From IMG/VR virus record IMGVR_UViG_2548876858_000016: a stretch of 19,882 bases of DNA; one strand, given 5' to 3'. The position numbers and the translations under genes were made by a program. The notes under the pieces are model-generated. The model ran no database searches. It was not told where the DNA came from and saw nothing but the letters and a program-made list of their open reading frames with translations. The first letter of the stretch is position 1. Every line of letters begins with the position of its first letter. The DNA comes from a virus (Duplodnaviria > Heunggongvirae > Uroviricota > Caudoviricetes). Below are positions 7,915-19,882 of the stretch, piece after piece.

Positions 7915-9438
7915 ATGAAACGTGTAATCAGCTACATCAGATTCAGTTCTGAGCGACAAGCCAAAGGCGACTCACTACGCAGACAGTCTAAGATGGTTAA
8001 TGACTGGCTTAAGGCTCATCCTGAGTACTACCTTGACCAAGATTTATCCTTCCGTGATTTGGGGGTGAGTGGGTTCACTGGTAAGCACTTGAAAGGTGGC
8101 TTAGGTGACTTTTTAACCGCTATCGAGAAAGGGCTTGTTAAAGCTGGTGATACGCTCTTGATAGAATCTCTTGACCGTCTGTCACGTCAAGATGTAGACC
8201 AAGCAAGTGAGCTACTCAGAAACATTCTTCGCTCTGGTGTAGATGTGGTCACCTTGTCCGATGGTGAACATTACACACGAGAATCTCTTAAAGACCCGTT
8301 AGCTCTGATTAAAAGCATTCTGATAATGCAGCGGTCGCATGAGGAGAGTTTGAGGAAGTCTGAGCGTATACAAGCTGCATGGAACCGTAAAAAAGAACTC
8401 ATCTCTGAAGGTATCAAGATTTCTAAACGTTGTCCTGCATGGCTTAAGCTTAATGATGACCGTAAAAGCTTCTCTGTAATCCCTGAGAAAGTGGAGACTG
8501 TGAAGAGGTGCTTTCAGCTACGGTTAGAGGGTAAGTCTATCTGGGAGATTGTCAGGACTCTTAATGATGAAGGTCACCAGACGCTTAACCAATATAAAGC
8601 GGGTTCATTTGGTCAAACCTCAGTACAAGACCTTCTGAAAAATCGCTCTGTAATTGGTTACTTCACACCTAAAGGCTGTGAAGAGATAGCTGATTATTAT
8701 CCTGCAATTATAGATGAAACAACATTCTACAAAGTCCAGCAACTATCATATGCTCGTTACGGTAGAAAACCTGCTTCAGATAAGCCAATGGCTGTGAATC
8801 TTTTCAAAGGTGTTATCCGTTGCTCTGAATGTGGTCATGCTCTGATTATCACAGGCTTTAGCGATACAAGAAACGGGATTTATCGCTGTCCCCTTCGTAA
8901 TGAAAACCGTTGTAGTGCTAAAGGGCTGTCACGTAAGCAAACCGATGGTACATTGCTTACCCTGCTATCTCGTCTTGACCGATTTGATAGCGATACGACG
9001 AATACCATCGATACACTGAAGTTACACCGTGAACACATCTCAAGCAATATTGAGAAGCTGGTACAGCTATCACTTGAAATTGAAGATTTGTCAGCTATTA
9101 CCAGCAAGCTAAAACAACTAAAGAATGAGCTATCACAGGTTGATGCGGATATCGAGAAGGAGACACAACGCCTTAAATCTATTGATGTGGGGTGTTTGTC
9201 TGATTGTGACTTGACTACAAAGGCGGGAAGGATTGAAGCACAACTGATAATCAAAAGTGCTGTTAAAGAGGTCGTTTTAAATACTGCTAAACGTCGATGT
9301 AAAGTGACTTTTCACAACGGTAAGGTAATTGACCTACCAATAACAGAAAACCCCTCAGACAACGTTACAGAGGCTATACAGTCGCTTTCTGAAGTCACTG
9401 AGAGGGGTTTAATAGATGTTGATGAGGTTATCATATAG
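7915..9438 (+). CDS. Large serine recombinase (resolvase catalytic domain + recombinase domain + zinc-ribbon)
   Basis: 507-aa ORF; N-terminal YIRFSSERQ with catalytic Ser; Cys cluster CSECGH...YRCPLRNENRC; C-terminal coiled coil. Confidence 0.85.
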   Translation: MKRVISYIRFSSERQAKGDSLRRQSKMVNDWLKAHPEYYLDQDLSFRDLGVSGFTGKHLKGGLGDFLTAIEKGLVKAGDTLLIESLDRLSRQDVDQASELLRNILRSGVDVVTLSDGEHYTRESLKDPLALIKSILIMQRSHEESLRKSERIQAAWNRKKELISEGIKISKRCPAWLKLNDDRKSFSVIPEKVETVKRCFQLRLEGKSIWEIVRTLNDEGHQTLNQYKAGSFGQTSVQDLLKNRSVIGYFTPKGCEEIADYYPAIIDETTFYKVQQLSYARYGRKPASDKPMAVNLFKGVIRCSECGHALIITGFSDTRNGIYRCPLRNENRCSAKGLSRKQTDGTLLTLLSRLDRFDSDTTNTIDTLKLHREHISSNIEKLVQLSLEIEDLSAITSKLKQLKNELSQVDADIEKETQRLKSIDVGCLSDCDLTTKAGRIEAQLIIKSAVKEVVLNTAKRRCKVTFHNGKVIDLPITENPSDNVTEAIQSLSEVTERGLIDVDEVII

Positions 9439-9452
9439 TTGAGATTCTATCG

Positions 9453-10226
9453 TCAGTAGCGCTTATTCGGATTCACCGAAAACTTCTTCAAAGTACTACC
9501 TGTACCAGCATTATTAAGCACCTTTGAAGCTTGCTCATTAGCGGCATCTGAGAAGGTGCTTTTTCCGTTCTTAACTCTGACATTCCTACCACAATTGATA
9601 CGGGCTTGAAGTTGCTCATTAGAAAGTTCACTCGTAGAGCGATTATATAGCTCCTGACACATCAACATACCGTTACCTAAGCTTGTCGTAGTGTTCCCTG
9701 TATTCTTTTTGCTGGTAGCACCACCATCATTTGTAGTAGCTGTCTTTCCAGTAGCAGCCGAAATATCAGTTTGACCCACAATAGCTTTAAAGTTAATTTC
9801 CTGAAAAGTTAGCTGGATTCTTAGACCATTTGAAATACCAACATCTTTAGAGGCTTTAAAGCTTGTAATAATGGAGTCATCAATTTTAATACCATCTTTA
9901 CAGATGACCGAAATAATCTGCTTCTGGTCACGCCAGTTTTCAAGAGTGTCGATGAAGTTCTCCACCAGCTTATTATCTCTTGAGATAAGGATACTACCGG
10001 ATTCACCAACCACAACCACACCACTGATTGAAATAGTTCTTGGTGAACGCATTACATTATCTGTTACAGTCTGCCCTGATTGCATATTTTGAGTGGTCAC
10101 CATCATAGGGCTGTCATATTCCATCTGTTCAGTTGCTGATAAGGTTAAGAAATTATCTGGCTGTCCTTGTAGATGGAAGTAAACACCATCTTTACCAGTG
10201 TAACGAAGCTGACTAGTGTAAATCAT
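9453..10226 (-). CDS. Hypothetical protein (257 aa); possible tail component by position downstream of the tape-measure-like gene
   Basis: Track ORF; GGAGA SD 5 nt upstream of ATG; convergent with the recombinase gene. No domain recognised. Confidence 0.55.
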
Positions 10227-10309
10227 TAAATTCTCCTTTGATTTCAGAGACTTAGTGTATTTTAATCATTTTTAACCAAGCCTTTGATATATAAGTGTTT
10301 TCTCTGTTA

Positions 10310-10376
10310 AGCGTGAGCTACGTAAAAAATAATTTTTGGTGGGTATATCTGTTCAGAAGATTTCACGTAGCACACG
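10310..10376. promoter_or_regulatory. Copy A of a duplicated intergenic regulatory element (AAGCGTG..TACGTAAA..GTGGGTAT..CAGA..TTTC..ACGTAGCACAC)
   Basis: Shares ordered conserved blocks with 12501-12594; arms CGTGAGCTACGT / ACGTAGCACACG form an 11/12 inverted repeat; lies upstream of gene 9453-10226. Confidence 0.5.
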
Positions 10377-10389
10377 GATATATAAGAAA

Positions 10390-12480
10390 TCATTCTTCCT
10401 CTGGATAGCTTGAACTTAAGAGCATATCCTGCGTGAACTGGTCATTAGCTGATTGATTGAAAGTAAAGAAAGCTGGTTCATCCGGTCTAACAATTGCTTC
10501 ACCAGTGATATTAACTGACAAGGGCTTCTTAGCTTCTACTGTTAAAGCATCAACCTTGCGTGATAGCTCACTAATAGTCATTGCAAGTTGAGCATTACTA
10601 TTAACCATGTCACCCGTAATAGCTGGTGGAGTTGATTGTGTGTTATTTACGAAGTTATTCATCGGTTCTTGGGAGTTAGCAATTTTATCAGCTGCACTAC
10701 TAAACCAACCTTTAACATCGTCCATAGTGAACACTGGTTTAAGTCCAGACTCTTTAGCTAGCTCTGGTAATTTAGCTTGTGCTTCCATTCGTTCAGGTGT
10801 AGAAGCTAATCTTTCATAACCTGCATAGATAGCACTACCAGCTAATAGCATATTCATAGGGTTTAGTCTTGATGGTTTCCCATTCTTTCTATTCACGTTA
10901 TCCGCTGTGGTATCAGCGACCTGACCTAATCTTGTGATAGCAGTCATAAGCCCGTAAATACTTCTGGTTACACCAACAACTTTATTCACAGCAATAACAC
11001 CAGCCAAGACTTTTAAACTATTAATCAAGCCAGAACCTAAAGCATCAACTACTTTCTTTTGCTCATCGGTTAAACCACGATAAGCTAATGTCACCTCATC
11101 GAAGAATGCTCTTACCCTGTAGCTGATATCAGTCAATGAATCGACACCATGCGACATATCGCTCATCAAGCTACCAAGAGATTCACCAAGACTTTTACCA
11201 CTTCCACCAAGAGCGTTTAAAAGCGTTGTTAGGCTTCTTGTGAAATCTTGAAGACCATTTTCAGAACCTCTGAAGATACTATCAAGCGTGGTATTCCAAG
11301 AGTTTTTCAAGTTCCCTAGTTGTGCCTGTGTACTTTCTGAAATGGCTTTCCAGCCACCTTTAGCGGTGATTTGTCTATTCAGTTCCTGAGTGACCTTCTG
11401 AAGAGTATCGGCAGATTTTAAAGCCCCCTTCTTCATGGCATCAAATAATTCCTGTTCACTCTTTCCGGTTGCTTTAGCGAATACCTGAACCATACCAGGA
11501 ACAGCTTCAGCCAGTTGCCCCTTAAGCTCTTCAGCCATAATCTGACCCTTACCAGCCATCTGTGATAATGCTGTCAGTGCTCGCTTAATCTCTTCTTCAC
11601 TTCTCCCCATCAGACGAGCATAGCCAATCATATTTTTAAAAAGTTCTTCAGAACCTTGAATACCCATAGACTCTTTAGCTGAAGCACCAAAACCAGCAAA
11701 CTGTGATTGCAGTTCAGCGATATCTAAACCCGTTGTTTGAGCTAATGACTTTGTGAACTCTTTTACCTGACCTGCATCTTTATCAAATACGAAATCAATT
11801 GAACGCTCAGCACTTGCACGCTGTAAACCAATTTCCATAATCTTCTGATAACTGGCTAATACAGCCTGCATTGAGATAAATGCACCTGCTGTTTTAACTG
11901 CTGCTGAAGACAGGTTATCAAGACTATTAGCTGCTCTGTCAGCATTAATGCTGGTGGATGTATGACCTCTGGCTTTAGCAATTGCTTCTCTGACTGAAGC
12001 GTTTAACTGAGCTAACTTCTCATTGAATTTTGAAGAATCCATTGACCCGGCTTTAGCAGATAGCCCGTAAAACTGAGATTTGATGTATTTCTGCAAAATA
12101 GGGTCAAAGCCTTTTAGCTTAGACATATTAGCTGAGTAAGCCGCTGTGATTGCTCTGTTGCCGCTAATTAGTGGCTGTCTTGGCTGTCTAAGTGGCTTTA
12201 AAGTATCCTCAATTTCCGTTTTAATCTTAAACGCTCTAGTGTTTTTAAGACGCTGCTCAATCTTGTCAAAGGTCTTATTAAACTTCCTTTCAAGTTGCCC
12301 TAAAGAACTTGTCAGATTGCTGTCAAGTTGCTTGGTATCGACCTTAAACGCTCTATTCAAATTGCGTTCAATTCTTTGTGCTGACTGCAAAGCTGCCTTT
12401 TCAACTCTTTGCAGTCCCTTAATAACGTTTTCATTGAAGCCTAGCTCAACGATAAAACTATCAACTGTGAATTTGCTCAT
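10390..12480 (-). CDS. Phage tail tape-measure-like protein
   Basis: 696-aa ORF; central region (GSEELFKNMIGYARLMGRSEEEIKRALTALSQMAGKGQIMAEELKGQLAEAVPGMVQVFAKATGKSEQELFDAMKKG) matches the tape-measure core pattern; coiled-coil N-terminus; GAGGTG SD. Confidence 0.7.
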   Translation of the reverse strand: MSKFTVDSFIVELGFNENVIKGLQRVEKAALQSAQRIERNLNRAFKVDTKQLDSNLTSSLGQLERKFNKTFDKIEQRLKNTRAFKIKTEIEDTLKPLRQPRQPLISGNRAITAAYSANMSKLKGFDPILQKYIKSQFYGLSAKAGSMDSSKFNEKLAQLNASVREAIAKARGHTSTSINADRAANSLDNLSSAAVKTAGAFISMQAVLASYQKIMEIGLQRASAERSIDFVFDKDAGQVKEFTKSLAQTTGLDIAELQSQFAGFGASAKESMGIQGSEELFKNMIGYARLMGRSEEEIKRALTALSQMAGKGQIMAEELKGQLAEAVPGMVQVFAKATGKSEQELFDAMKKGALKSADTLQKVTQELNRQITAKGGWKAISESTQAQLGNLKNSWNTTLDSIFRGSENGLQDFTRSLTTLLNALGGSGKSLGESLGSLMSDMSHGVDSLTDISYRVRAFFDEVTLAYRGLTDEQKKVVDALGSGLINSLKVLAGVIAVNKVVGVTRSIYGLMTAITRLGQVADTTADNVNRKNGKPSRLNPMNMLLAGSAIYAGYERLASTPERMEAQAKLPELAKESGLKPVFTMDDVKGWFSSAADKIANSQEPMNNFVNNTQSTPPAITGDMVNSNAQLAMTISELSRKVDALTVEAKKPLSVNITGEAIVRPDEPAFFTFNQSANDQFTQDMLLSSSYPEEE

Positions 12481-12500
12481 TCATATTTTTCACCTCTTTA

Positions 12501-12594
12501 AGCGTGTTGTACGTAAATTCTATTTTTCAGTGTGGGTATTAGCTTTACAGATTTCATGAGGATAATTCTTATCCGAATCATCACGTAGCACACA
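12501..12594. promoter_or_regulatory. Copy B of the duplicated intergenic regulatory element, upstream of the tape-measure-like gene
   Basis: Same conserved blocks as 10310-10376 with a ~27-bp insertion; contains CACGTAGCACACAGGAT (12582-12598). Confidence 0.5.
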
Positions 12595-12622
12595 GGATTC
12601 GATAGAAGACTATCTCATATAC

Positions 12623-12663
12623 AAAAAAGGGAGAGCTACCGATGTCACTCGATAATCTCTCCC
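12623..12663 (-). terminator. Candidate intrinsic terminator on the minus strand (GGGAGAG / CTCTCCC stem, 21-nt loop, U6)
   Basis: 7-bp GC-rich stem at 12629-12635 / 12657-12663; on the minus-strand transcript it is followed by UUUUUU (plus-strand A6 at 12623-12628). Loop is long for a terminator. Confidence 0.4.
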
Positions 12664-12688
12664 GTTGATTTTTACCCAACCAATCTTT

Positions 12689-12892
12689 TTACCTAACCAG
12701 ATAATAATTACCATCTTCACCGACAATCTGACAATCACTTGGTAATTTATCAAGACACCATTTAGCGATTCTTCTGATTCTATTCTTTTGCTTAGAGGTG
12801 GATGATTTGATTCGTTTTGGTTTGTTGGGTTGTTCTTTCAATCGTTCACTAATTGCTTTAATAAGCTCATAGCGTTCTGTTAAATCAATCAT
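12689..12892 (-). CDS. Hypothetical small basic protein (67 aa)
   Basis: Track ORF; strong AGGAGGTG SD; Lys/Arg-rich centre (KPKRIKSSTSKQKNRIRRIAK). Confidence 0.5.
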   Translation of the reverse strand: MIDLTERYELIKAISERLKEQPNKPKRIKSSTSKQKNRIRRIAKWCLDKLPSDCQIVGEDGNYYLVR

Positions 12893-12916
12893 TCACCACC
12901 TCCTTTTAATTCATAG

Positions 12917-13657
12917 TTAAAGTGCCTTTGCATATTTCTGAGAAATCTTCACTAACTGCTCAATATCAGCCTGCATAGCAATTTTCTTCTGTGATTCATA
13001 TTCACTAACAAGCTCTTTCATAGTATCAAGCTCTTTTTTAAGCTTTTGCTTTAACTTATCCAGCTTATCGGAGTAATGCTTAGTCAGATTAGCTTCAGCT
13101 AACTGAAGAATCTCTTCATCTGTTTTGTTAGTCATCAGGATATATGAGCCTGTACCACGTGAAGCTTGTCTGACATCCATTAATCGAAAACCGTCAGGAA
13201 TACTTTGAAGCACTTTTGGAACATTCTCTCTTGCTGTACCGAAACCATTGTTGTAATTTCCTTCGTAATAGATAAACGGGTTTGTCTTAAGCTCATATTC
13301 AATATCATATTCTGAAGGTTTCTGAGTTTCTTCGAAGTTTTTGACAACATCATAAGCATTATCAAGCTTGATGCGCTGCTCTTTTAGTAGTGGATAGTAC
13401 TTCCTCTCAAGTGCAATCAGAGCTTCTGTCTTGCAAACATCAGTCATTTCCAGAGGCTCAGGATTGATATATTCAAGATTATTGGCTGGAACAATCTTTC
13501 GCAGCCTTTCTTTTTTGGCCTCTTCATCTGCAAGCTTGGCAATAATTTTGTGATAAGGTTTCATATGTGCATACTCATCTCCTTCATCAGTAAAATGCAA
13601 ATCATATGCACAAGGTTTTCTATCAACAATCGCTTCATGTTCATCACGGATAGACAT
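12917..13657 (-). CDS. Hypothetical protein (246 aa), charged with coiled-coil C-terminus
   Basis: Track ORF; GAGGAAAA SD ~9 nt upstream. Confidence 0.55.
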   Translation of the reverse strand: MSIRDEHEAIVDRKPCAYDLHFTDEGDEYAHMKPYHKIIAKLADEEAKKERLRKIVPANNLEYINPEPLEMTDVCKTEALIALERKYYPLLKEQRIKLDNAYDVVKNFEETQKPSEYDIEYELKTNPFIYYEGNYNNGFGTARENVPKVLQSIPDGFRLMDVRQASRGTGSYILMTNKTDEEILQLAEANLTKHYSDKLDKLKQKLKKELDTMKELVSEYESQKKIAMQADIEQLVKISQKYAKAL

Positions 13658-13692
13658 TATTATTTTTCCTCTTCTAAGATAATTTATGTTTC

Positions 13693-13774
13693 AGTTTTTA
13701 AAAAGCACACCTGACAGCCTACGAACTTAGAAGAGACTTAAAAGGCGGTTTGCCAAGTGCGCTTTTTAAAAGCT
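13693..13774. repeat. 18-bp inverted repeat (AGTTTTTAAAAAGCACAC ... GTGCGCTTTTTAAAAGCT, 16/18) with ~47-bp spacer
   Basis: Seen directly in the sequence, inside a 470-bp ORF-free gap between minus-strand genes. Confidence 0.6.
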
Positions 13775-14130
13775 GAAAAAGCCCTAGATAACTAAAACGC
13801 TATAAAGGGCTAAGGTGAAGAAATTAAAGAACATCCAAAGGATTCAATAACGAATGAACAAAGACTTTTTGAGATAGCCTATCTAGTGTGGGCTAAATAG
13901 GCCATGACGAAAAGCATTGCACCTTTCCAACTCAGAATAACTATCATTGATGTAGAATGATTAATAGTTTAATTCAGGAAGAGTTGCTCTCCCCTATTAC
14001 CATCATCTCATGCTTAAGGTTATTTGTCAACAGCTTTTAACAGATTGATAACATCAATTCTTATTTACTGTGTTACCCACCCAGCAACCAACAAATAAGC
14101 CAAGCAACGTCCAAGCAATTATTAAGCCCA

Positions 14131-14454
14131 TTAGTGAACCCTCACGGAATCCGTAACCAAAATATTATCGCTGTACAGGATTGTCACAGCACCTTTCAAA
14201 AATCGCTCTGGGGAAATACTGTATTTGTTCGTTTGCTCAATAACCAATCTTTTCATATTACTGTCTGTAATTGGTAACATCATTCGAGGCTCGTTAAACT
14301 CCACCGAGTGAATAAAGTCAGAGATGCTTTCCGCATTATCAGCCATTAACTCTAACAACTTATCAAAGTCAATGCTAACACCTACATCAGTGAAAGCCTG
14401 AATCATCATGGCGGTGTCGGTATCAATAAAAATCTGTAGTGGGAAATTATTCAT
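14131..14454 (-). CDS. Hypothetical protein (107 aa)
   Basis: Internal Met of track ORF 14131..14565 (MNNFPLQIFIDTDTAMM...), with AGGA SD 9 nt upstream. Confidence 0.5.
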   Translation of the reverse strand: MNNFPLQIFIDTDTAMMIQAFTDVGVSIDFDKLLELMADNAESISDFIHSVEFNEPRMMLPITDSNMKRLVIEQTNKYSISPERFLKGAVTILYSDNILVTDSVRVH

Positions 14455-14592
14455 TTTTAAAATCCTATAAAAACACATCTTAAATCTGCCAAAATAGCCA
14501 TTCTGAGGCCAGTAACCATGCGGGTTACAGAGGGAGTGAGACACCTTAGTAATAGGGTAGCTCATCTTTGAGTCTCACTCATTCTCACAGAC

Positions 14593-14979
14593 TTACACAG
14601 ACGCTTTAATCTTGTAGTATTGACTACGTGATAAGCCGTATTTCTCAGAAATATAACTTTGTGATTGTCCTTTGGTGATTGCATCAATGATTAAATCTTT
14701 ATCGTATCTGTTACCGTTGGCTTTGTGCTTGTCACTATTTTTAATAGAGTTGAAGTTCTCCATTAATTCAATGGCGTCTTTAAGGTCGCTTTCGTAAGCA
14801 TAATCAAAACCTCTGATAAACTCGAAATCACCATTATCTTTTTGTGCTTCAGCCCAGATATCAAATCTTGAGGCTAATTGCTGGTGGGTAAACTTGGGCT
14901 TATTGGTTTGTGTTACGTCTTTCCAGACCTTACCGTCAAATCTTACCAAATGGTCACGATGCTTATAAAAATCATACAT
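14593..14979 (-). CDS. Hypothetical protein with C-terminal HTH (128 aa)
   Basis: Track ORF; GGAGG SD; C-terminal ITKGQSQSYISEKYGLSRSQYYKIK resembles a resolvase/Hin-type or small-terminase-type HTH. Start overlaps the upstream stop (TAATG). Confidence 0.55.
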   Translation of the reverse strand: MYDFYKHRDHLVRFDGKVWKDVTQTNKPKFTHQQLASRFDIWAEAQKDNGDFEFIRGFDYAYESDLKDAIELMENFNSIKNSDKHKANGNRYDKDLIIDAITKGQSQSYISEKYGLSRSQYYKIKASV

Positions 14980-15257
14980 TAAACCTCCATTGCTAATTTG
15001 TGAATTTTGATACTTAGTAATCTTGCTAAATCCAGTCCAAAGGCATTTAGAGCCTTCAGACTATCAAGGTCATCTTGCTTAATCCTGATATGGTGTCTTG
15101 CTGCCTCTAAACGACTATTAAGCAAATCCTGCTCGTTAATATCACGGTTAATTGCAAGCTTCATCACTGCTGAGTGTGGCAGACCTGTAATGTTTTTGAT
15201 TCGGTTAAGTTCGTCAAAGGCTGTCTTTGTAACTCTGGTTAAAGTGTGCTTAGTCAT
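14979..15257 (-). CDS. Hypothetical protein (92 aa)
   Basis: Track ORF; tightly packed between neighbours in one minus-strand operon. Confidence 0.5.
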   Translation of the reverse strand: MTKHTLTRVTKTAFDELNRIKNITGLPHSAVMKLAINRDINEQDLLNSRLEAARHHIRIKQDDLDSLKALNAFGLDLARLLSIKIHKLAMEV

Positions 15258-15260
15258 TAT

Positions 15261-15824
15261 TTAAAATCCTTCTGCTTGTGCGTACACGTCAAATTCAAAG
15301 TCTGGCTCACTGCTTGTAAGACTGATATTACCAACGGTAATATGATGCTCGACAATACCAATTAACTTTGCGCACATCACAGCAAGTAATGCGCAATAGG
15401 CATCGCTTGGTAACTCATGGCTTAACCTGGTTGCCTGACGCTGGAGATGGTTTGTCACGGTAGCTGAGTTAATTTCATCAAGATTCTTTAGAAGATAAAA
15501 CAATTTCTTGTTGTATTTTGGGTGCCCCTCACTTCTGCAAAATCCGATAAGAATGTCGTCAAGCTTGCTCGGTAATTGCTCGTAGCTGTCAAAGTTAGCC
15601 AGATAATTCTTGATGCTGTTCTTTGTTGTTTTGCGTACTGACATATAACGACTCCTCGGTGTAATTGCCCGAATTACTTCGTCAATGCCTTTGCGTTCTG
15701 CTCTGGTGAACTTGGGTGCTTCGTGGCTGGTGGGGGAGTTTGTGTAGCTGTAGGAGTTGTAGGAGTTGTATCTGTTACGTTGTCTCGATGCCTGAAGCAT
15801 CGCTCTAAATTCTCTGTCGTTCAT
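15261..15824 (-). CDS. Hypothetical protein (187 aa) with in-frame 9-bp tandem repeat
   Basis: Track ORF; AAGGA SD 11 nt upstream; GTAGGAGTT x2.3 at 15750-15770 encodes NSYNSYSY. Confidence 0.55.
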   Translation of the reverse strand: MNDREFRAMLQASRQRNRYNSYNSYSYTNSPTSHEAPKFTRAERKGIDEVIRAITPRSRYMSVRKTTKNSIKNYLANFDSYEQLPSKLDDILIGFCRSEGHPKYNKKLFYLLKNLDEINSATVTNHLQRQATRLSHELPSDAYCALLAVMCAKLIGIVEHHITVGNISLTSSEPDFEFDVYAQAEGF

Positions 15825-15910
15825 TCATAAGCTAGTCCTTATAATTGTTAATTCTCTGTTAACTTATATAGACAATACTAGCATTTTCAAAGACTAATGT
15901 CAAGCATTTT

Positions 15911-15940
15911 TTAACATTTCATTAACATCTGTGGTATAAT
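15911..15940 (+). promoter_or_regulatory. Candidate sigma70 promoter with extended -10 (TTAACA-18-TGgTATAAT)
   Basis: TATAAT at 15935-15940 preceded by TG at 15932-15933; TTAACA at 15911-15916. Confidence 0.5.
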
Positions 15941-16122
15941 GGTTCTATGGGGAGAGTAAAATATAAAGGCGTGGCTATGAGAGTGGTCATATGGTTATTG
16001 CATTGCACACAGACCTCTTCAATCGCTCTGTAACGAGTTAAATGGCCTCTTCAGGTCAACATATAAGGTCAGGTACTTTTTTGTGTCAGAATGCGATTGA
16101 GAGCGTCTTACAAGGAAAACTA

Positions 16123-16299
16123 ATGGTAAATCTCCCTCCTGAGCTGGGGTCACCTGATGTATGGGCTGGTGGAGGTGTTGGGCTGATTGCAGGTCTGCTA
16201 CTTCGCTACGTCCTCGTCAGAGTGCTTGTTGTCTTTAAACTGTTCGGTCGTACATGGACGCTTGACCTTAAGGATAACGACCACACAGAACCCCGTTAA
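16123..16299 (+). CDS. Candidate small single-TM protein (58 aa)
   Basis: Internal ATG of track ORF 16042..16299, with AAGGA SD 6 nt upstream; hydrophobic segment VGLIAGLLLRYVLVRVLVVF; downstream of the 15911-15940 promoter. Confidence 0.35.
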   Translation: MVNLPPELGSPDVWAGGGVGLIAGLLLRYVLVRVLVVFKLFGRTWTLDLKDNDHTEPR

Positions 16300-16340
16300 A
16301 CTCCCTTCAAAACCCCCTGTACGTGATGGTATAGGGGTAT

Positions 16341-16357
16341 CTTTAGCATTTTGTGCT
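16341..16357. promoter_or_regulatory. Copy 1 of 17-bp dyad motif CTTTAGCAWWWWGTGCT
   Basis: CTTTAGCATTTTGTGCT; internal dyad AGCA-N5-TGCT; same motif recurs at 17471-17487 and inverted at 17501-17517. Confidence 0.45.
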
Positions 16358-16525
16358 ATCTATTAATAAATAGCTTGACATAACCGGAAAACTGAATCTA
16401 TCAAGTATTCACCCCTCTGACAGTAATTTCTAAAAATGCTTATTTTTCAATGAGTTGTAATTAGCCAATATAAAGGACTGACAAGACTCTTCACAGAGAA
16501 CTTTCAAGACTCACTAAGACACAAG

Positions 16526-16562
16526 GCGATAACCCCAGACAGGGAGAGCCTCCTTCTTAACC
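16526..16562. repeat. Direct repeat copy A (GCGATAACCCCAGACAGGG...TCTTAAC)
   Basis: ~75% identical to 16696-16732; contains a CCCC-N5-GGG mini-hairpin. Confidence 0.5.
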
Positions 16563-16695
16563 GACTTCTTAAACAATCTTTACAGACCCCCGTTCACCAG
16601 TCTCAATATTTTTATTTCTCGCTCTTCGTTTTTTGCTCGTTTCTATTATTGAGGGGGTTTGAAAAACCTCTGTAAAATAACCCTTCCAGTAAAAA

Positions 16696-16732
16696 GCGAA
16701 TAACCCCAGAAAGGGGAAATCGCATCTTTAAC
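16696..16732. repeat. Direct repeat copy B (GCGAATAACCCCAGAAAGGGG...TCTTTAAC)
   Basis: Pairs with 16526-16562; contains the perfect hairpin CCCCagaaaGGGG. Confidence 0.5.
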
Positions 16733-16763
16733 ATTCTCGTAATCAGTGCTCTATATGAGAACT

Positions 16764-17432
16764 TCAGCCCAACCTTTGAACAATCCTGTAAGTGGTGCTT
16801 AGAGGTATTCTTAGCGATTCTGCGATGCTCTTGATGGGTTGCCCTTGGTCATACATTTTAATCAACCTGTCAAGCGTCTGTGCATCGTGCATATGAGGTC
16901 TTCCACGTAAACCACCCCTGTTAACCACGGCAAGTAAAAGCATTGTGTCACCACAATAGATTGTCTGGGTAACTTCAACTTTCGGTTTGCGGGGTGTGTT
17001 CCTGTATATCAAAACGCAACTTGGAAACGGTGAGCGCACTACAACACCTCTCTTTCCTGCTGGTGGAAGGTATTTGACTGCTCGGTGTAACGTTCGAATC
17101 TCATGCAGGAAGGGGTTTGTATATACACACCGAAGCCAGTAAGTTGTCTTTGACCTGAGCGGAACCAGACATACACACACATCAGCTTCAGGGGCTTTTA
17201 AGAGGAACTTTTCAGCCATGCTAAACGGCGGGTTAACGAAGACCCGTTCACCAACCCATGATTGATTGTGAATATCATCGGTGAACCGTGGCAACAATGC
17301 GTCATACTCAGTTGCAGCACCATCTAGACTGAAGTTAAACTCACGATGCAGGTTATGAAATAAACGATACGGTGTACGCCAGTCATCAGAACCACCATGA
17401 TAACGACCAACATTGATTATTGGATGCGACAC
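16764..17432 (-). CDS. Phage Dam-family N6-adenine DNA methyltransferase fused to a C-terminal resolvase/Hin-type HTH
   Basis: 222-aa ORF with GTG start (AGAGGGG SD ~10 nt upstream). N-terminal ~150 aa shows DDWRTP...F.F.LDGAA...NPPFS...SPFPS, which I recognise as the phage Dam MTase pattern; C-terminal GRPHMHDAQTLDRLIKMYDQGQPIKSIAESLRIPLSTTYRIVQRLG resembles a serine-recombinase HTH. Confidence 0.7.
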   Translation of the reverse strand: MSHPIINVGRYHGGSDDWRTPYRLFHNLHREFNFSLDGAATEYDALLPRFTDDIHNQSWVGERVFVNPPFSMAEKFLLKAPEADVCVCLVPLRSKTTYWLRCVYTNPFLHEIRTLHRAVKYLPPAGKRGVVVRSPFPSCVLIYRNTPRKPKVEVTQTIYCGDTMLLLAVVNRGGLRGRPHMHDAQTLDRLIKMYDQGQPIKSIAESLRIPLSTTYRIVQRLG

Positions 17433-17470
17433 AAGCGAAGCGCCCCTCTTAGTATATTTCTTAATCGTCT

Positions 17471-17517
17471 CTTTAGCATTTAGTGCTTTTTGTTAAGTTT
17501 AGCACTTTTTGCTAAAG
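17471..17517. promoter_or_regulatory. Inverted pair of the 17-bp dyad motif, upstream of the Dam-HTH gene; candidate operator
   Basis: CTTTAGCATTTAGTGCT (17471-17487) and reverse complement of CTTTAGCAAAAAGTGCT (17501-17517), 13-bp spacer; 40-85 bp upstream of the GTG start; a minus-strand TATACT -10 candidate lies at 17451-17456. Confidence 0.45.
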
Positions 17518-17944
17518 ACAAAAGCATTGACAAAATGGTAGGATTGTTCACATAGCCCTTACTTAACAGACTCTTAAGAGCTTTGAAACAGCCTGTTTAA
17601 CAAGGTCACTACCTCTGGTCTTATCGTTCCCTTCTTTCTAGGTAGTCATCTGTTAAGAACTTTTCAGTTTTATTCTTAAGATAATTGTTAAGATGATACT
17701 CTCCCTTCGGGTTATATCGTATCTCTCCTCCCGTTAAATATCCCTTCACAGTCAGACTAAATAACACCTGTGTAGTTTCTTGGTAGAATCTTTCAAGGTA
17801 ACTTAACTCTGAGTTTATGAAGTTGACCTATGAGATAGACTCTACCGAATCTGTTAGTCAATTGTTGCTTAGGTGCTGCTAAGGCTTACTTAGTGGGAAG
17901 AGAGGGAATATGTGACCATAGGAACCCCTCCTGTTAAAAGCTTC

Positions 17945-17972
17945 TTGACGTTACTATCTCGATATGTATAAT
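17945..17972 (+). promoter_or_regulatory. Near-consensus sigma70 promoter (TTGACG-16-TATAAT)
   Basis: TTGACG at 17945-17950, 16-bp spacer, TATAAT at 17967-17972; no credible ORF downstream. Confidence 0.5.
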
Positions 17973-17979
17973 GGCTTAC

Positions 17980-18148
17980 TGTACTAGGTTTACTTCCAAA
18001 GCAACCAAGCACACTCTCTATGGCAGTGTCCAGCGAGGTAAGGTCGTGTAGGGTGCGGTTCGGTGGGGTAAGGTTTGGTGCGGTATGGGTGGATTGTCGT
18101 AGCCACGTTAAAAATCGACTTATAGGGACTCTTTCGGGAGTCCTTTTT
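17980..18148 (+). ncRNA. Candidate ~170-nt small RNA bounded by promoter and intrinsic terminator; G-rich internal tandem repeat
   Basis: Starts ~7 nt after the -10 and ends at the 18125-18148 terminator; contains GGTAAGGT...GGTGCGGT twice (18046-18095); the only overlapping ORF (18020-18298) reads through the terminator and looks non-coding. Confidence 0.4.
18125..18148 (+). terminator. Rho-independent terminator (GGACTC-tttcgg-GAGTCC + T5)
   Basis: 6-bp stem at 18126-18131 / 18138-18143, T-run 18144-18148; plus-strand specific. Confidence 0.6.
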
Positions 18149-18298
18149 AGTTTGTATAAAATCTGTACAGTAACTTTTCAGAGTCTGAAAATTTTTATAA
18201 ATATCGTAGTAACCCCTCTACATTCCCCTTCACCGATAATTTTCAAAAATATCTACACTCAATTGATGGCTGTTAAGTACCCCAGATTCACGATATAG

Positions 18299-18308
18299 CC
18301 CCCCCCCC
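18299..18308. repeat. Homopolymeric C10 tract
   Basis: Ten consecutive C in intergenic DNA, immediately upstream of a promoter-like TTGCAA-16-TATAAC (18310-18337). Confidence 0.9.
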
Positions 18309-19048
18309 TTTGCAAAAGCAGTTAAAATATCTATAACCAACCATTGACTTTCTTCATGATATCTGTTTAGCCCCACCTCAATAAGCCATCATCACACATC
18401 AAAGCATCTATCAAGAAGGTTTAACCTATCAATAGCTGTAACATTTTATAGTTCTGTGAAGTCCTATCCAGTTTTCTCTGTAACAGCTACAAACTTCTGT
18501 GACCTTATGTGTCAATGACTTATAAGACATGCTCTCAAGGTGCTGTATAGCCTCTTATCAGCCAATACACAAAACCCTTATAAATCAGTACTGATATGTA
18601 TACAGTATGTTTTTAACATAATAGCTGTTTTACGCACTAATAAGCACCTACGTAGATTCTGTATAGAGATTAAGATGTCTCTAAGTGATTTTTTAAGAGG
18701 AGATACGAAGGAACTATAACCATCACTTCATAACTTTCACGTAGGTAACTATTAAGTAGGTTGATAGTCACTTTGAGGGAATATTGATAGTGACCAACTG
18801 CATAGACACCGTTATATAGCCCTGTATATAGCACTATATGTAGTGTCTGGAGAGGGACGACTAACACGATATAGTTTACCCTGAAAAGAGGATTTACAGA
18901 TTCTCTATACATTTCAATAAGTTATGATAAAAAGGGGCTATGTCGATACTGTATAGAATCTGTGTAGGATTGCATAGATACTTGGAAAAATACCGTTAAA
19001 TTGCATAGGTACTAACCTGTTTATGTCCTGTTATTTACAGGCATAGCA

Positions 19049-19882
19049 TTATTGGTTAATTAATTCATCCGACTCTATATCATTACCTTTTTCTTTTTCC
19101 TTTTTAATTTTAGCCTCTACCATATCGAACATTTTCATTGTCTGTGATGAAGTTAGCTCTTTCTTTTGTCGTAGCGCGTTACGTATGGTAGAAGCTTCAA
19201 TATCAGAAACTGTTAAAAGTTCTTCTACCCTACTCTTCAATTGCTGTAATGAACGGCTATTATCAACTTTAAAGAAATCATCCATTACCTCAAGTGAGGC
19301 AACAATCAAATCCTGTAGTCTCTCTTTTTCTATCTCGATATTTTCAATGGTTTGTTTTTCTTTAGATACTAACTGCTTTAAATTATTAATTTCTTTCTGA
19401 ATCAGTTTCTTCTCTGTCTGTAGCTCTTCTGTGACCAGCTCTTCACGCTTACCACGCTCTACTTCCGCTTTAATATCAGCATCAATTTTAGCATTTTCTT
19501 TCTCTTCTTCTCTGGCAGCCCGAACCTTTAACCCCGTTAACCTGATTGAATCCAAGTATTCTTTTTCCTTTGTAAGATAAACATTTTCATTGTGTTTATC
19601 TGTAGCCCATTTTTGAGCAAGAGAAAGTAACCATTGAGCATAAGGAGTAATAACAGCTAGCACACCTCCAAAAAAGACAGGAGCAAGCAGATAATGAGCG
19701 TAAAAATATTCCTGAGATAGTATATAATCTATTCGAAACTTAACAGGCGCATCACTCATAAAGAGCATTGCTAAGTTAGGCCAGTTGAACCATACCCATG
19801 CAAGAATGATATATCCCCATAATGGGCTTTTAATCCTATCGTTTATTGCTTGCATAGTAGAATCTAACCACCCATCACTCAT
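19049..19882 (-). CDS. Membrane-anchored coiled-coil protein (two N-terminal TM segments + long K/E-rich coiled coil); start at or beyond window edge
   Basis: Track ORF; hydrophobic segments LWGYIILAWVWFNWPNLAMLF and YLLAPVFFGGVLAVITPYAQWLL, then heptad-like K/E-rich sequence. The Met at 19880-19882 is the last codon in the window, so the true start may lie outside. Confidence 0.55.
   Translation of the reverse strand: MSDGWLDSTMQAINDRIKSPLWGYIILAWVWFNWPNLAMLFMSDAPVKFRIDYILSQEYFYAHYLLAPVFFGGVLAVITPYAQWLLSLAQKWATDKHNENVYLTKEKEYLDSIRLTGLKVRAAREEEKENAKIDADIKAEVERGKREELVTEELQTEKKLIQKEINNLKQLVSKEKQTIENIEIEKERLQDLIVASLEVMDDFFKVDNSRSLQQLKSRVEELLTVSDIEASTIRNALRQKKELTSSQTMKMFDMVEAKIKKEKEKGNDIESDELINQ

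Follow-up and report, generated by a model that had tools for sequence, protein, structure and literature searches.

A probable orphan VIPR guide RNA on a phage satellite integrated in Escherichia coli carries a code that matches host REP elements

The stretch of DNA described here (IMG/VR record IMGVR_UViG_2548876858_000016; 19,882 nucleotides, referred to as a whole as the window) contains, at positions 17979–18148 of the plus strand, what is almost certainly a vrRNA gene, encoding a guide RNA of the SUSP1/Ounavirinae clade of VIPR, the recently described phage RNA-guided DNA-binding systems (bioRxiv 10.64898/2026.04.26.720920, April/June 2026). The gene lies on a phage satellite integrated in the Escherichia coli chromosome, and its code matches a z-type repetitive extragenic palindromic (REP) element of the host. 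That it is an orphan vrRNA and that its code corresponds to host REP are, taken together, very likely. The vrRNA class is known from the 2026 preprints, whereas orphan status and an exact host-REP specificity were not found reported; the main text of 10.64898/2026.04.26.720920, its supplementary target tables lying outside the scope of this comparison, makes no mention of REP, bacterial interspersed mosaic elements (BIMEs) or host-genome targeting.

VIPR systems have three components: Vipr, a ~20-kDa member of the RAMP protein family; the accessory gene vap; and vrRNAs ~100 nt long. A vrRNA consists of 9–16 YNNGG (GGY/NN) repeats and an invariant tail, which in the SUSP1 clade is a pseudoknot; the NN dinucleotides pair with double-stranded DNA (dsDNA), one target base being skipped per unit, and binding represses transcription (10.64898/2026.04.26.720920). 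Each repeat is occupied by one Vipr protomer, and the R-loop extends from the 3′ end to the 5′ end (10.64898/2026.04.26.720927). The window RNA combines this repeat architecture with a pseudoknot tail, homology to phage vrRNAs and a natural target that is matched by at least 80% of its NN bases with a skip of 1 nt only.

Repeat tract and guide code

The body of the RNA is a tandem tract of 14 in-phase pentamers (Table 1), which read TATGG, CAGTG, TCCAG, CGAGG, TAAGG, TCGTG, TAGGG, TGCGG, TTCGG, TGGGG, TAAGG, TTTGG, TGCGG and TATGG. Tandem Repeats Finder called the tract with a period of 15 nt, the true period being 5 nt; within it, GGTAAGGT is found at 18037–18044 and 18067–18074, and GGTGCGGT at 18052–18059 and 18077–18084. 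An earlier, sequence-only reading of this DNA had placed a G-rich repeat, present twice in tandem, at 18046–18095. The internal repeat is indeed there and forms the functional core of the RNA, but it consists of 14 YNNGG units with a 5-nt period rather than of two copies, and the coordinates given for it were a few bases off.

The pattern was compared among seven distinct satellite variants (L-numbers denote sampled loci, L002 being strain ECE228 and L136 being NZ_CP024223). Position 5 is G in all 71 internal units and position 4 is G in 62 of the 71, whereas position 1 is C or T throughout and all 16 NN dinucleotides are represented. The number of units ranges from 10 to 14 across the variants, changing only by multiples of 5 nt. 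The TATGG units that bracket the tract are invariant in most sampled satellites, the 5′ one being missing from L008 and L011. The 12 units between them constitute the guide portion, whose predicted dsDNA target under the 1-nt-skip rule is AGxCCxGAxAAxCGxAGxGCxTCxGGxAAxTTxGC.

The 3′ pseudoknot

The tail that follows the repeats is predicted from an alignment of tails to form an H-type pseudoknot. Stem S1 pairs residues 18089–18092 (GTGG) with 18103–18106 (CCAC), and stem S2 pairs residues 18096–18099 (GTCG) with 18116–18119 (CGAC), with the A-rich loop GTTAAAAAT (18107–18115) located between the 3′ strands of both stems. Fourteen distinct tails belonging to 5 classes align without gaps (alignment A1); 96% of the cells of this alignment are paired, and the covariation among homologues that had been proposed earlier as a check takes the form of compensatory, both-sided changes in 8 of the 9 pairs. 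None of 500 shuffles reached the observed values, and registers slid out of place were 28–44% paired. Stem S1 occurs as GTGG/CCAC, GTAG/CTAC and AAGG/CCTT, and stem S2 as GTCG/CGAC, GGTAG/CTACC, GTCTC/GAGAC, AATCG/CGATT and GGCAG/CTGCC. The cryo-EM structure of the SUSP1 vrRNA likewise shows a 3′ pseudoknot cap (10.64898/2026.04.26.720927).

Homologues in Ounavirinae phages and in E. coli

In blastn searches, residues 18019–18119 were 75–80% identical to unannotated intergenic DNA of about 106 Ounavirinae phages, including phiSUSP1. These matches, in Felixounavirus, Suspvirus and Mooglevirus, lie 3′ of the DNA ligase gene and adjoin a gene for a 195-residue protein; SUSP2, XTG1, Sf18, dune and SeKF_63 each have 4–5 such RNAs, flanking genes for proteins of 195 and 146 residues. 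To judge from its sequence, the 195-residue phage protein, which has 529 homologues at E ≤ 0.001, is Vipr: the SUSP2 protein contains H17, E71, M72, R138, C173, D177, W178 and R179, which are 8 of the 9 residues named for SUSP1 Vipr, and has V at position 175, for which T is named (10.64898/2026.04.26.720927).

Five tail classes are common to the phages and the satellites. The tail of the window RNA is of the phage class B, and XTG1 vrRNA2 has a tail 100% identical to those of satellites L134 and L135. Among 5426 complete E. coli genomes, the RNA region has homologues in 153, all of them chromosomal, and the homologous elements are situated at yecE, ymdF–rutG or yciI. The last 33 nt at the 3′ end are nearly invariant among the satellite copies.

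Promoter, terminator and coding potential

The sequence-only reading had proposed a discrete non-coding RNA gene of ~170 nt, running from a near-consensus promoter to an intrinsic terminator, and the gene is borne out from sequence in each of these parts. The promoter (Table 1) matches the consensus at 11 of 12 positions and is the top promoter-like site within 17300–19200. Because the count of promoter-like sites in that region is not above that of shuffled sequences, its weight rests on conservation: diverged satellite homologues have promoter-like hexamers in the same place (TTGATG..TATAAT and TTGACA..TAAGAT). From the promoter position, transcription would start at about 17979. The mature RNA probably lacks the resulting leader or keeps it in a flexible state; the leader is common to L134–L136 and differs in other satellites. 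The terminator hairpin has a stem of 9 pairs (18124–18145) and is followed by a T run ending at 18148; relatives (L005, L134, L135, L004 and L011) maintain the hairpin and U-run though the stem sequences vary.

No credible open reading frame (ORF) had been noted in the interval, and this holds. The sole ORF across the RNA, 18020–18298 (92 residues), reads through the terminator, and the 80-residue ORF at 18670–18912 (minus strand) and the 59-residue ORF at 18540–18719 (plus strand) contain stops or have lost their start in relatives; a coding role of the region was rejected on these grounds. The ORF-poor surroundings described earlier extend over 17433–19048, a stretch with no credible ORF and no match in the plasmid database. 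Over the whole window, Rfam 15 returned no match at the gathering score, and within 17400–19100 there was none even at E ≤ 1. The RNA therefore belongs to no family that Rfam 15 recognises, and the assignment to a known family that would have told against the earlier proposal did not occur. ARAGORN detected no tRNA and no tmRNA.

Other classes of RNA and DNA element

Several of the functions suggested by the sequence-only reading have to be revised. In place of a regulatory base-pairing small RNA (sRNA), the YNNGG architecture, the homology to phage vrRNAs and the covarying pseudoknot define a vrRNA, and a type III antitoxin-like RNA does not fit units of 5 nt, as opposed to roughly 36 nt. Its observation that no toxin ORF lies downstream stands, since the RNA ends in a terminator beyond which no ORF is conserved. 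Its view that a retron RNA is unlikely stands as well: among nine main ORFs of the element, a set without the tape measure and small ORFs, Pfam and PHROGs revealed no reverse transcriptase domain, and there is no Rfam retron match. A protein-sequestering RNA is not the class to which the gene belongs, but it survives as one possible role, that of a sink for the Vipr of a helper phage, with no vipr in cis.

It is hardly credible that the locus encodes a conventional trans-acting or protein-binding sRNA (acting with Hfq or CsrA) or a type III antitoxin, or that it is a DNA element such as an R-loop origin, a G-quadruplex or a set of iterons. The G-rich sequence, the promoter and terminator, and the location in an ORF-poor region near the end of the element would all be compatible with these. 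However, Rfam gave no match, the repeat period is 5 nt and not about 36 nt, no toxin ORF follows, and the sequence has a single GGA, with none in a hairpin loop; the pyrimidine after GG and the covarying pseudoknot are constraints at the RNA and protein level that are specific to vrRNAs. Other candidates were an RNA bound by a protein ring in the manner of TRAP (11 triplets spaced by 5 nt), an origin primed by an R-loop, a G-quadruplex of two tetrads, and binding sites for primase or iterons; they were dropped because the covarying pseudoknot and the vrRNA description account for every feature.

The guide matches a host repeat

The code of the window guide matches the host z-type REP and its right flank, AGGCCTGATAAGCGTAGCGCATCAGGCAATTTTGC, which is the commonest matched sequence, at 24 of 24 bases. 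With a skip of 0, 2 or 3 nt the match does not exceed 18/24, and no other guide scored above about 82% on the same REP-rich DNA. The best local matches were chromosomal intergenic REP elements outside satellites. A scan of one genome per species located the exact 24-base pattern at 191 sites in 118 stretches, in E. coli, other Escherichia, Shigella, Pseudocitrobacter and Enterobacter, the chance expectation being ~0.004 exact matches in 596 Gb. Every one of the 5426 complete E. coli genomes contains the 35-mer AGGCCTGATAAGCGTAGCGCATCAGGCAATTTTGC, the median being at least 19 near-identical places per genome, almost all chromosomal. Upstream of the matched REP there typically lie a conserved linker that contains AATTCAATATATTGCA and a y-type REP. 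In BIME-1 the order is y, an L linker with an IHF site, and z1 (PMC3333891), and the target REP would correspond to z1 of BIME-1-like elements. The 18-base REP part is absent from the window, with up to 3 mismatches allowed, and no Ounavirinae record contains the REP sequence; matches of the REP 42-mer in the phage database are confined to records that include host DNA.

The window shares its REP-matching guide with about 54 genomes of its clade. All 12 NN dinucleotides are identical in L002, L134 and L135, though the tail and terminator of L134 and L135 have diverged. The L136 guide (NZ_CP024223, ~1560–1620; L137, 1501–1531) has the same first seven NN as the window guide and then shifts register; over the REP it matches, at 20/20 NN, a variant whose loop is one base longer, AGGCCTGATAAGCGTAGCGCCATCAGGCA, downstream of gdhA; this variant occurs once each in 3441 genomes. 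The match to REP appears to have been selected, because the guide is kept while the tails diverge and the L136 guide tracks the REP variant. L136 is accordingly read, at the level of its code, as a second, independent REP-directed guide.

Another target could be envisaged, in which the relevant DNA belongs to a rival satellite or other mobile element, the REP match being incidental or due to a REP-like sequence carried by the rival. SUSP1 satellites encode their own vrRNAs, which are aimed at closely related satellites (10.64898/2026.04.26.720920), and the guides of L003, L004, L008 and L010 match rival satellites, including that of the window, at 17/20 to 21/24. For the window guide, however, about 74 kb of satellite DNA contained no site above 18/24 within satellites, the better matches at L005 and L009 being REPs in the chromosomal flank, and a 20-base sub-pattern had zero matches in 2.9 million IMG/VR viral contigs. 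The chance of a 24/24 match to a host repeat consensus is ~1e-8 per E. coli genome, and the L136 guide independently tracks a different REP variant. A rival mobile element as the relevant target is thus quite unlikely.

Two further observations concern the distribution of the REP sites. Tandem arrays of 4–9 copies of the exact target, with a period of ~115 or ~160–170 bp (expanded BIMEs), are found in some Escherichia genomes (L019, L025, L066–L068, L074 and L126–L128; Escherichia sp. MOD1-EC7003 and others), and such arrays would bind many Vipr filaments. REP sites that match at 21/26 are located ~1.2 kb from the ends of satellites at ymdF–rutG (L005, 8093–8130; L009, 4559–4596), probably by coincidence, given the density of REPs.

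A satellite without a detectable vipr gene

The window is part of the E. coli chromosome at yecE. Positions 1 to ~7800 belong to a phiP27/Stx-like prophage, of which they form the integrase end, and the second element, which carries the vrRNA gene, occurs alone between the halves of yecE in strain ECE228 (L002; NZ_CP196312). Strain NT1F10 (NZ_CP075462) is another carrier of the element. In addition to the recombinase, baseplate and tape measure genes listed in Table 1, it contains hypothetical genes, an ORF with a Dam/HTH_7 fusion, the ORF-poor stretch with the vrRNA, and a 277-residue ORF. It is a ~12-kb integrated element with an Ounavirinae-like tape measure and baseplate, has no full virion gene set and is matched by phage vrRNAs; on these sequence features it is assigned to the Felix-O1/SUSP1-type satellite family of the preprint, in which 18 of 20 SUSP1-clade vrRNA targets were on a satellite with a SUSP1-like tape measure and baseplate (72% baseplate identity; 10.64898/2026.04.26.720920).

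Searches of the window with tblastn, using SUSP2 Vipr and Vap, gave no match. A profile hidden Markov model of Vipr, built from 121 sequences and run on six-frame ORFs, detected no vipr in the window (best E value 7.5) or in 10 satellite loci (best 3.7), phage controls scoring at E ~1e-85; hhalign comparison of every ORF of the element of at least 70 residues with Vipr also gave none, with a best probability of 2%. A complete VIPR locus, in which vipr, usually together with vap, adjoins the vrRNAs, is therefore not what the window contains. Its vrRNA appears to be an orphan guide, presumably loaded by the Vipr of a helper phage, because its tail is of a phage class and the L134 and L135 tails are identical to a tail of XTG1.

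Phage and sister-satellite guides that match satellites

Guides were decoded by the 1-nt-skip rule, and significance was assessed with 100 permutations of the NN order of each guide. Six guides of dune and SeKF_63 match the satellite in the window (Table 1), each score being equalled or beaten by 0–1 of 100 permutations. In 3 of the 4 coding-sequence matches of phage guides the skipped base is the codon wobble position, as described for VIPR targets (10.64898/2026.04.26.720920). The phage-guide matches agree with an attack on this satellite by the VIPR system of its helper. The four SUSP2 vrRNAs have no significant match on the window; XTG1 and Sf18 guides match the sister satellite L003.

Guides of sister satellites also match the window. 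That of L010 has 18/20 matches in L005 and L007, at a site that lies directly 5′ of the −35 element of their vrRNA promoter and extends into it. The scores of the four sister-satellite guide types (L003, L004, L008 and L010) were reached by 0 of 100 permutations. As the matches of rival guides fall within 18522–18834, the ORF-poor stretch is both the home of the window guide and the target of its rivals. Within this stretch, segment 18283–18705 is specific to window-type satellites, and 18706–19041 is conserved in 9 of 10 sampled satellites. The stretch also contains a C10 homopolymer (18299–18308; C9 in L134), a possible slipped-strand variable tract.

Table 1 Positions of the vrRNA gene parts, satellite features and guide matches in the window
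Feature	Position	Strand	Details
σ70-type promoter	17945–17972	+	−35 TTGACG (17945–17950), 16-nt spacer, −10 TATAAT (17967–17972)
5′ leader of primary transcript	17979–18018	+	C/A-rich; deduced from promoter position
Tandem YNNGG (GGY/NN) tract	18019–18088	+	14 in-phase units, 11 canonical
Guide portion	18024–18083	+	12 units; NN code AG CC GA AA CG AG GC TC GG AA TT GC
3′ tail, predicted H-type pseudoknot	18089–18119	+	S1 and S2 stems, from alignment of tails
Intrinsic terminator	18125–18148	+	GGGACTCT/GGGAGTCC stem, 4-nt loop, T5
Felix-O1/SUSP1-type phage satellite (by sequence)	7915–19882		~12 kb, integrated in yecE; 277-residue ORF reaches window end
Large serine recombinase	7915–9438		Satellite gene
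Dit-like baseplate protein	9453–10226		Satellite gene; 72% identical to that of FelixO1 and relatives
Tape measure protein	10390–12480		Satellite gene
SeKF_1 vrRNA match	11672–11703	+	18/22
SeKF_2 vrRNA match	12990–13027	−	20/26
dune_3 vrRNA match	13711–13745	+	20/24
SeKF_4 vrRNA match	14247–14281	−	20/24
dune_5 vrRNA match	14690–14724	−	22/24
SeKF_3 vrRNA match	17624–17664	−	24/28
L008/L011 guide match	18522–18550	−	17/20
L004 guide match	18601–18635	+	21/24
L003/5/6 guide match	18800–18834	−	19/24

Proposed mechanism and competing explanations

In the mechanism proposed here, the near-consensus σ70 promoter would give a ~170-nt constitutive transcript in the lysogen. On infection by an Ounavirinae helper, Vipr made by the helper would polymerise on this RNA, one protomer per unit and 12–14 per RNA. 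By analogy with SUSP1, Vipr would sequester GGY and present NN to dsDNA, with every third target base skipped, and the bound filament would block transcription. Since the code is that of host REP, the guide would be expected to send helper Vipr to many chromosomal sites, with the Vipr–vrRNA filament binding at many z-REP/BIME copies. Functional REP binding through helper Vipr is rather probable. Of the consequences that such binding might have, a sink that parks Vipr on the chromosome, away from the helper's anti-satellite guides, is ranked first, and a roadblock of host transcription or replication at REPs second; a pure sponge with no DNA-level role is ranked as the least likely. The whole reading, in which the orphan guide of the satellite hijacks helper Vipr and redirects it to host REP/BIME, of which each chromosome would offer dozens of near-perfect sites, either as a sink that disarms the anti-satellite VIPR system or as a host roadblock, is put forward tentatively.

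A sponge that titrates helper Vipr and so protects the satellite, DNA targeting being irrelevant, would be in keeping with the failure to find vipr in the satellite, with the near-consensus promoter and with helper guides that target the element, and the binding of one Vipr protomer per repeat (10.64898/2026.04.26.720927) would suit it. It needs no particular NN, however, and is unlikely in view of 12 NN that stay identical despite the diverged tail and terminator of L134 and L135 and that match REP exactly.

Several points weigh against a functional, REP-directed orphan guide. Of the 12 guide units, three depart from the canonical form (CAGTG, TCGTG and TCCAG), and TCCAG (18029–18033) is a window-specific G-to-A change, the unit being TCCGG in L002, L134, L135 and L136. 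Because perturbation of the GGY motif abolishes silencing (10.64898/2026.04.26.720920), the window copy may be slightly weakened by this change. RAMP proteins can diverge beyond the reach of profile methods, and the satellite might conceivably contain a cryptic effector; for a conserved neighbour, the 187-residue ORF at 15261–15824, a single-sequence AlphaFold2 model reached a pLDDT of only 40 and was uninformative. Sister-satellite guides of all four types (L003, L004, L008 and L010) match rival satellites, and REP targeting is an exception among satellite guides.

The TCCAG change and the other non-canonical units, together with the lack of a detected vipr, could also be taken to mark a decaying relic, namely a vrRNA acquired from the helper phage that is non-functional without its protein partner. 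A relic would not be expected to retain GG and Y while NN is hypervariable, as in the seven satellite variants, or to vary in unit number in 5-nt steps; moreover, the pseudoknot, promoter and terminator have been maintained through compensatory change and the locus has homologues in 153 of 5426 genomes, and decay is very unlikely as an explanation.

Variable segments around the vrRNA gene

In most related satellites (among L003–L011, L134 and L136), a gene for a serine recombinase of 182 residues, the size of an invertase, directly follows the vrRNA terminator. It is missing from the window and from L135, and is in the reversed orientation in L010 and L011. Three distinct sequences follow the common junction ...TTCAAAAATATC (window 18244–18253 and downstream). 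The varying orientation of the recombinase gene and the three sequences after one junction suggest an invertible or exchangeable segment beside the vrRNA gene.

On the other side of the gene, ORF 16764–17432 (minus strand) encodes an N-terminal fragment of a Dam methyltransferase and a C-terminal resolvase-type HTH_7 domain, a region annotated in ECE228 as two separate short genes. The segment of ~16580–17513 that contains it is absent from the other sampled satellite variants, and the ORF looks like a rearrangement scar. Just upstream of its start, a near-identical 12-nt direct repeat, TAGTGCTTTTTG and TAGCACTTTTTG, is present at 17481–17492 and 17500–17511; it lies at the edge of the segment, homology to other satellites beginning at 17514.

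Discussion

The window RNA shares with the type II VIPR vrRNAs of Ounavirinae the YNNGG units, the hypervariable NN, the pseudoknot tail and 75–80% sequence identity, and for both the 1-nt-skip code yields a high-quality natural target. It differs from the phage vrRNAs in having neither vipr nor vap in cis, and in being a single gene with its own σ70 promoter and intrinsic terminator, whereas the phage RNAs form arrays split by hairpins. It also resides on a satellite that the phage system attacks, and its predicted target is a host repeat instead of a competing virus. The SUSP1 satellites of the preprint belong to the same element family, with 72% baseplate identity in both analyses, and have the same RNA; in contrast to their vrRNAs, the window guide matches host REP/BIME and not a satellite.

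Orphan and mini CRISPR arrays on phages and mobile elements use a Cas effector encoded elsewhere. Like a CRISPR crRNA, the vrRNA combines a variable guide with a constant handle, is bound by proteins of the RAMP fold and would use an effector from another genome. Unlike in CRISPR systems, its code is non-contiguous, being formed by two of every five RNA bases and read against two of every three DNA bases, and there is no repeat–spacer array, protospacer-adjacent motif or known acquisition machinery. If the decoy interpretation is right, the RNA would resemble CsrB/RsmZ and 6S RNA as a multi-site RNA that sequesters many copies of one protein. It would differ from CsrB/RsmZ in presenting GGY every 5 nt in single-stranded RNA, rather than GGA in hairpin loops, and from these titrating RNAs in general in that the vrRNA complex is itself a DNA-targeting filament. 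ToxI-like antitoxins are also tandem-repeat non-coding RNAs found on mobile elements in a setting of conflict and defence; their units of ~34–36 nt are followed by a toxin gene, whereas the 5-nt units of the window RNA are followed by a terminator and no toxin ORF.

VIPR, described only recently, is a minimal system for RNA-guided DNA binding that has been proposed to be older than CRISPR, and the window locus provides independent computational support for its repeat code, its pseudoknot and its 1-nt-skip rule. Neither Rfam nor gene callers detect RNAs of the vrRNA class, which bears on the annotation of such elements. The locus goes beyond the main text of the preprint in two respects: the guide has no effector of its own and is carried by a parasite of the phage that owns the effector, and it is aimed at a repeat family of the host. 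If this is true, the RNA would be the first vrRNA in nature that is directed at the host, and it would act at the level of the guide as a counter-defence to an RNA-guided system. It would add a new layer to the arms race between phages and their satellites, in which an RNA-guided effector is hijacked or decoyed at the level of its guide, and would tie the REP/BIME elements of the host to conflict among mobile elements.

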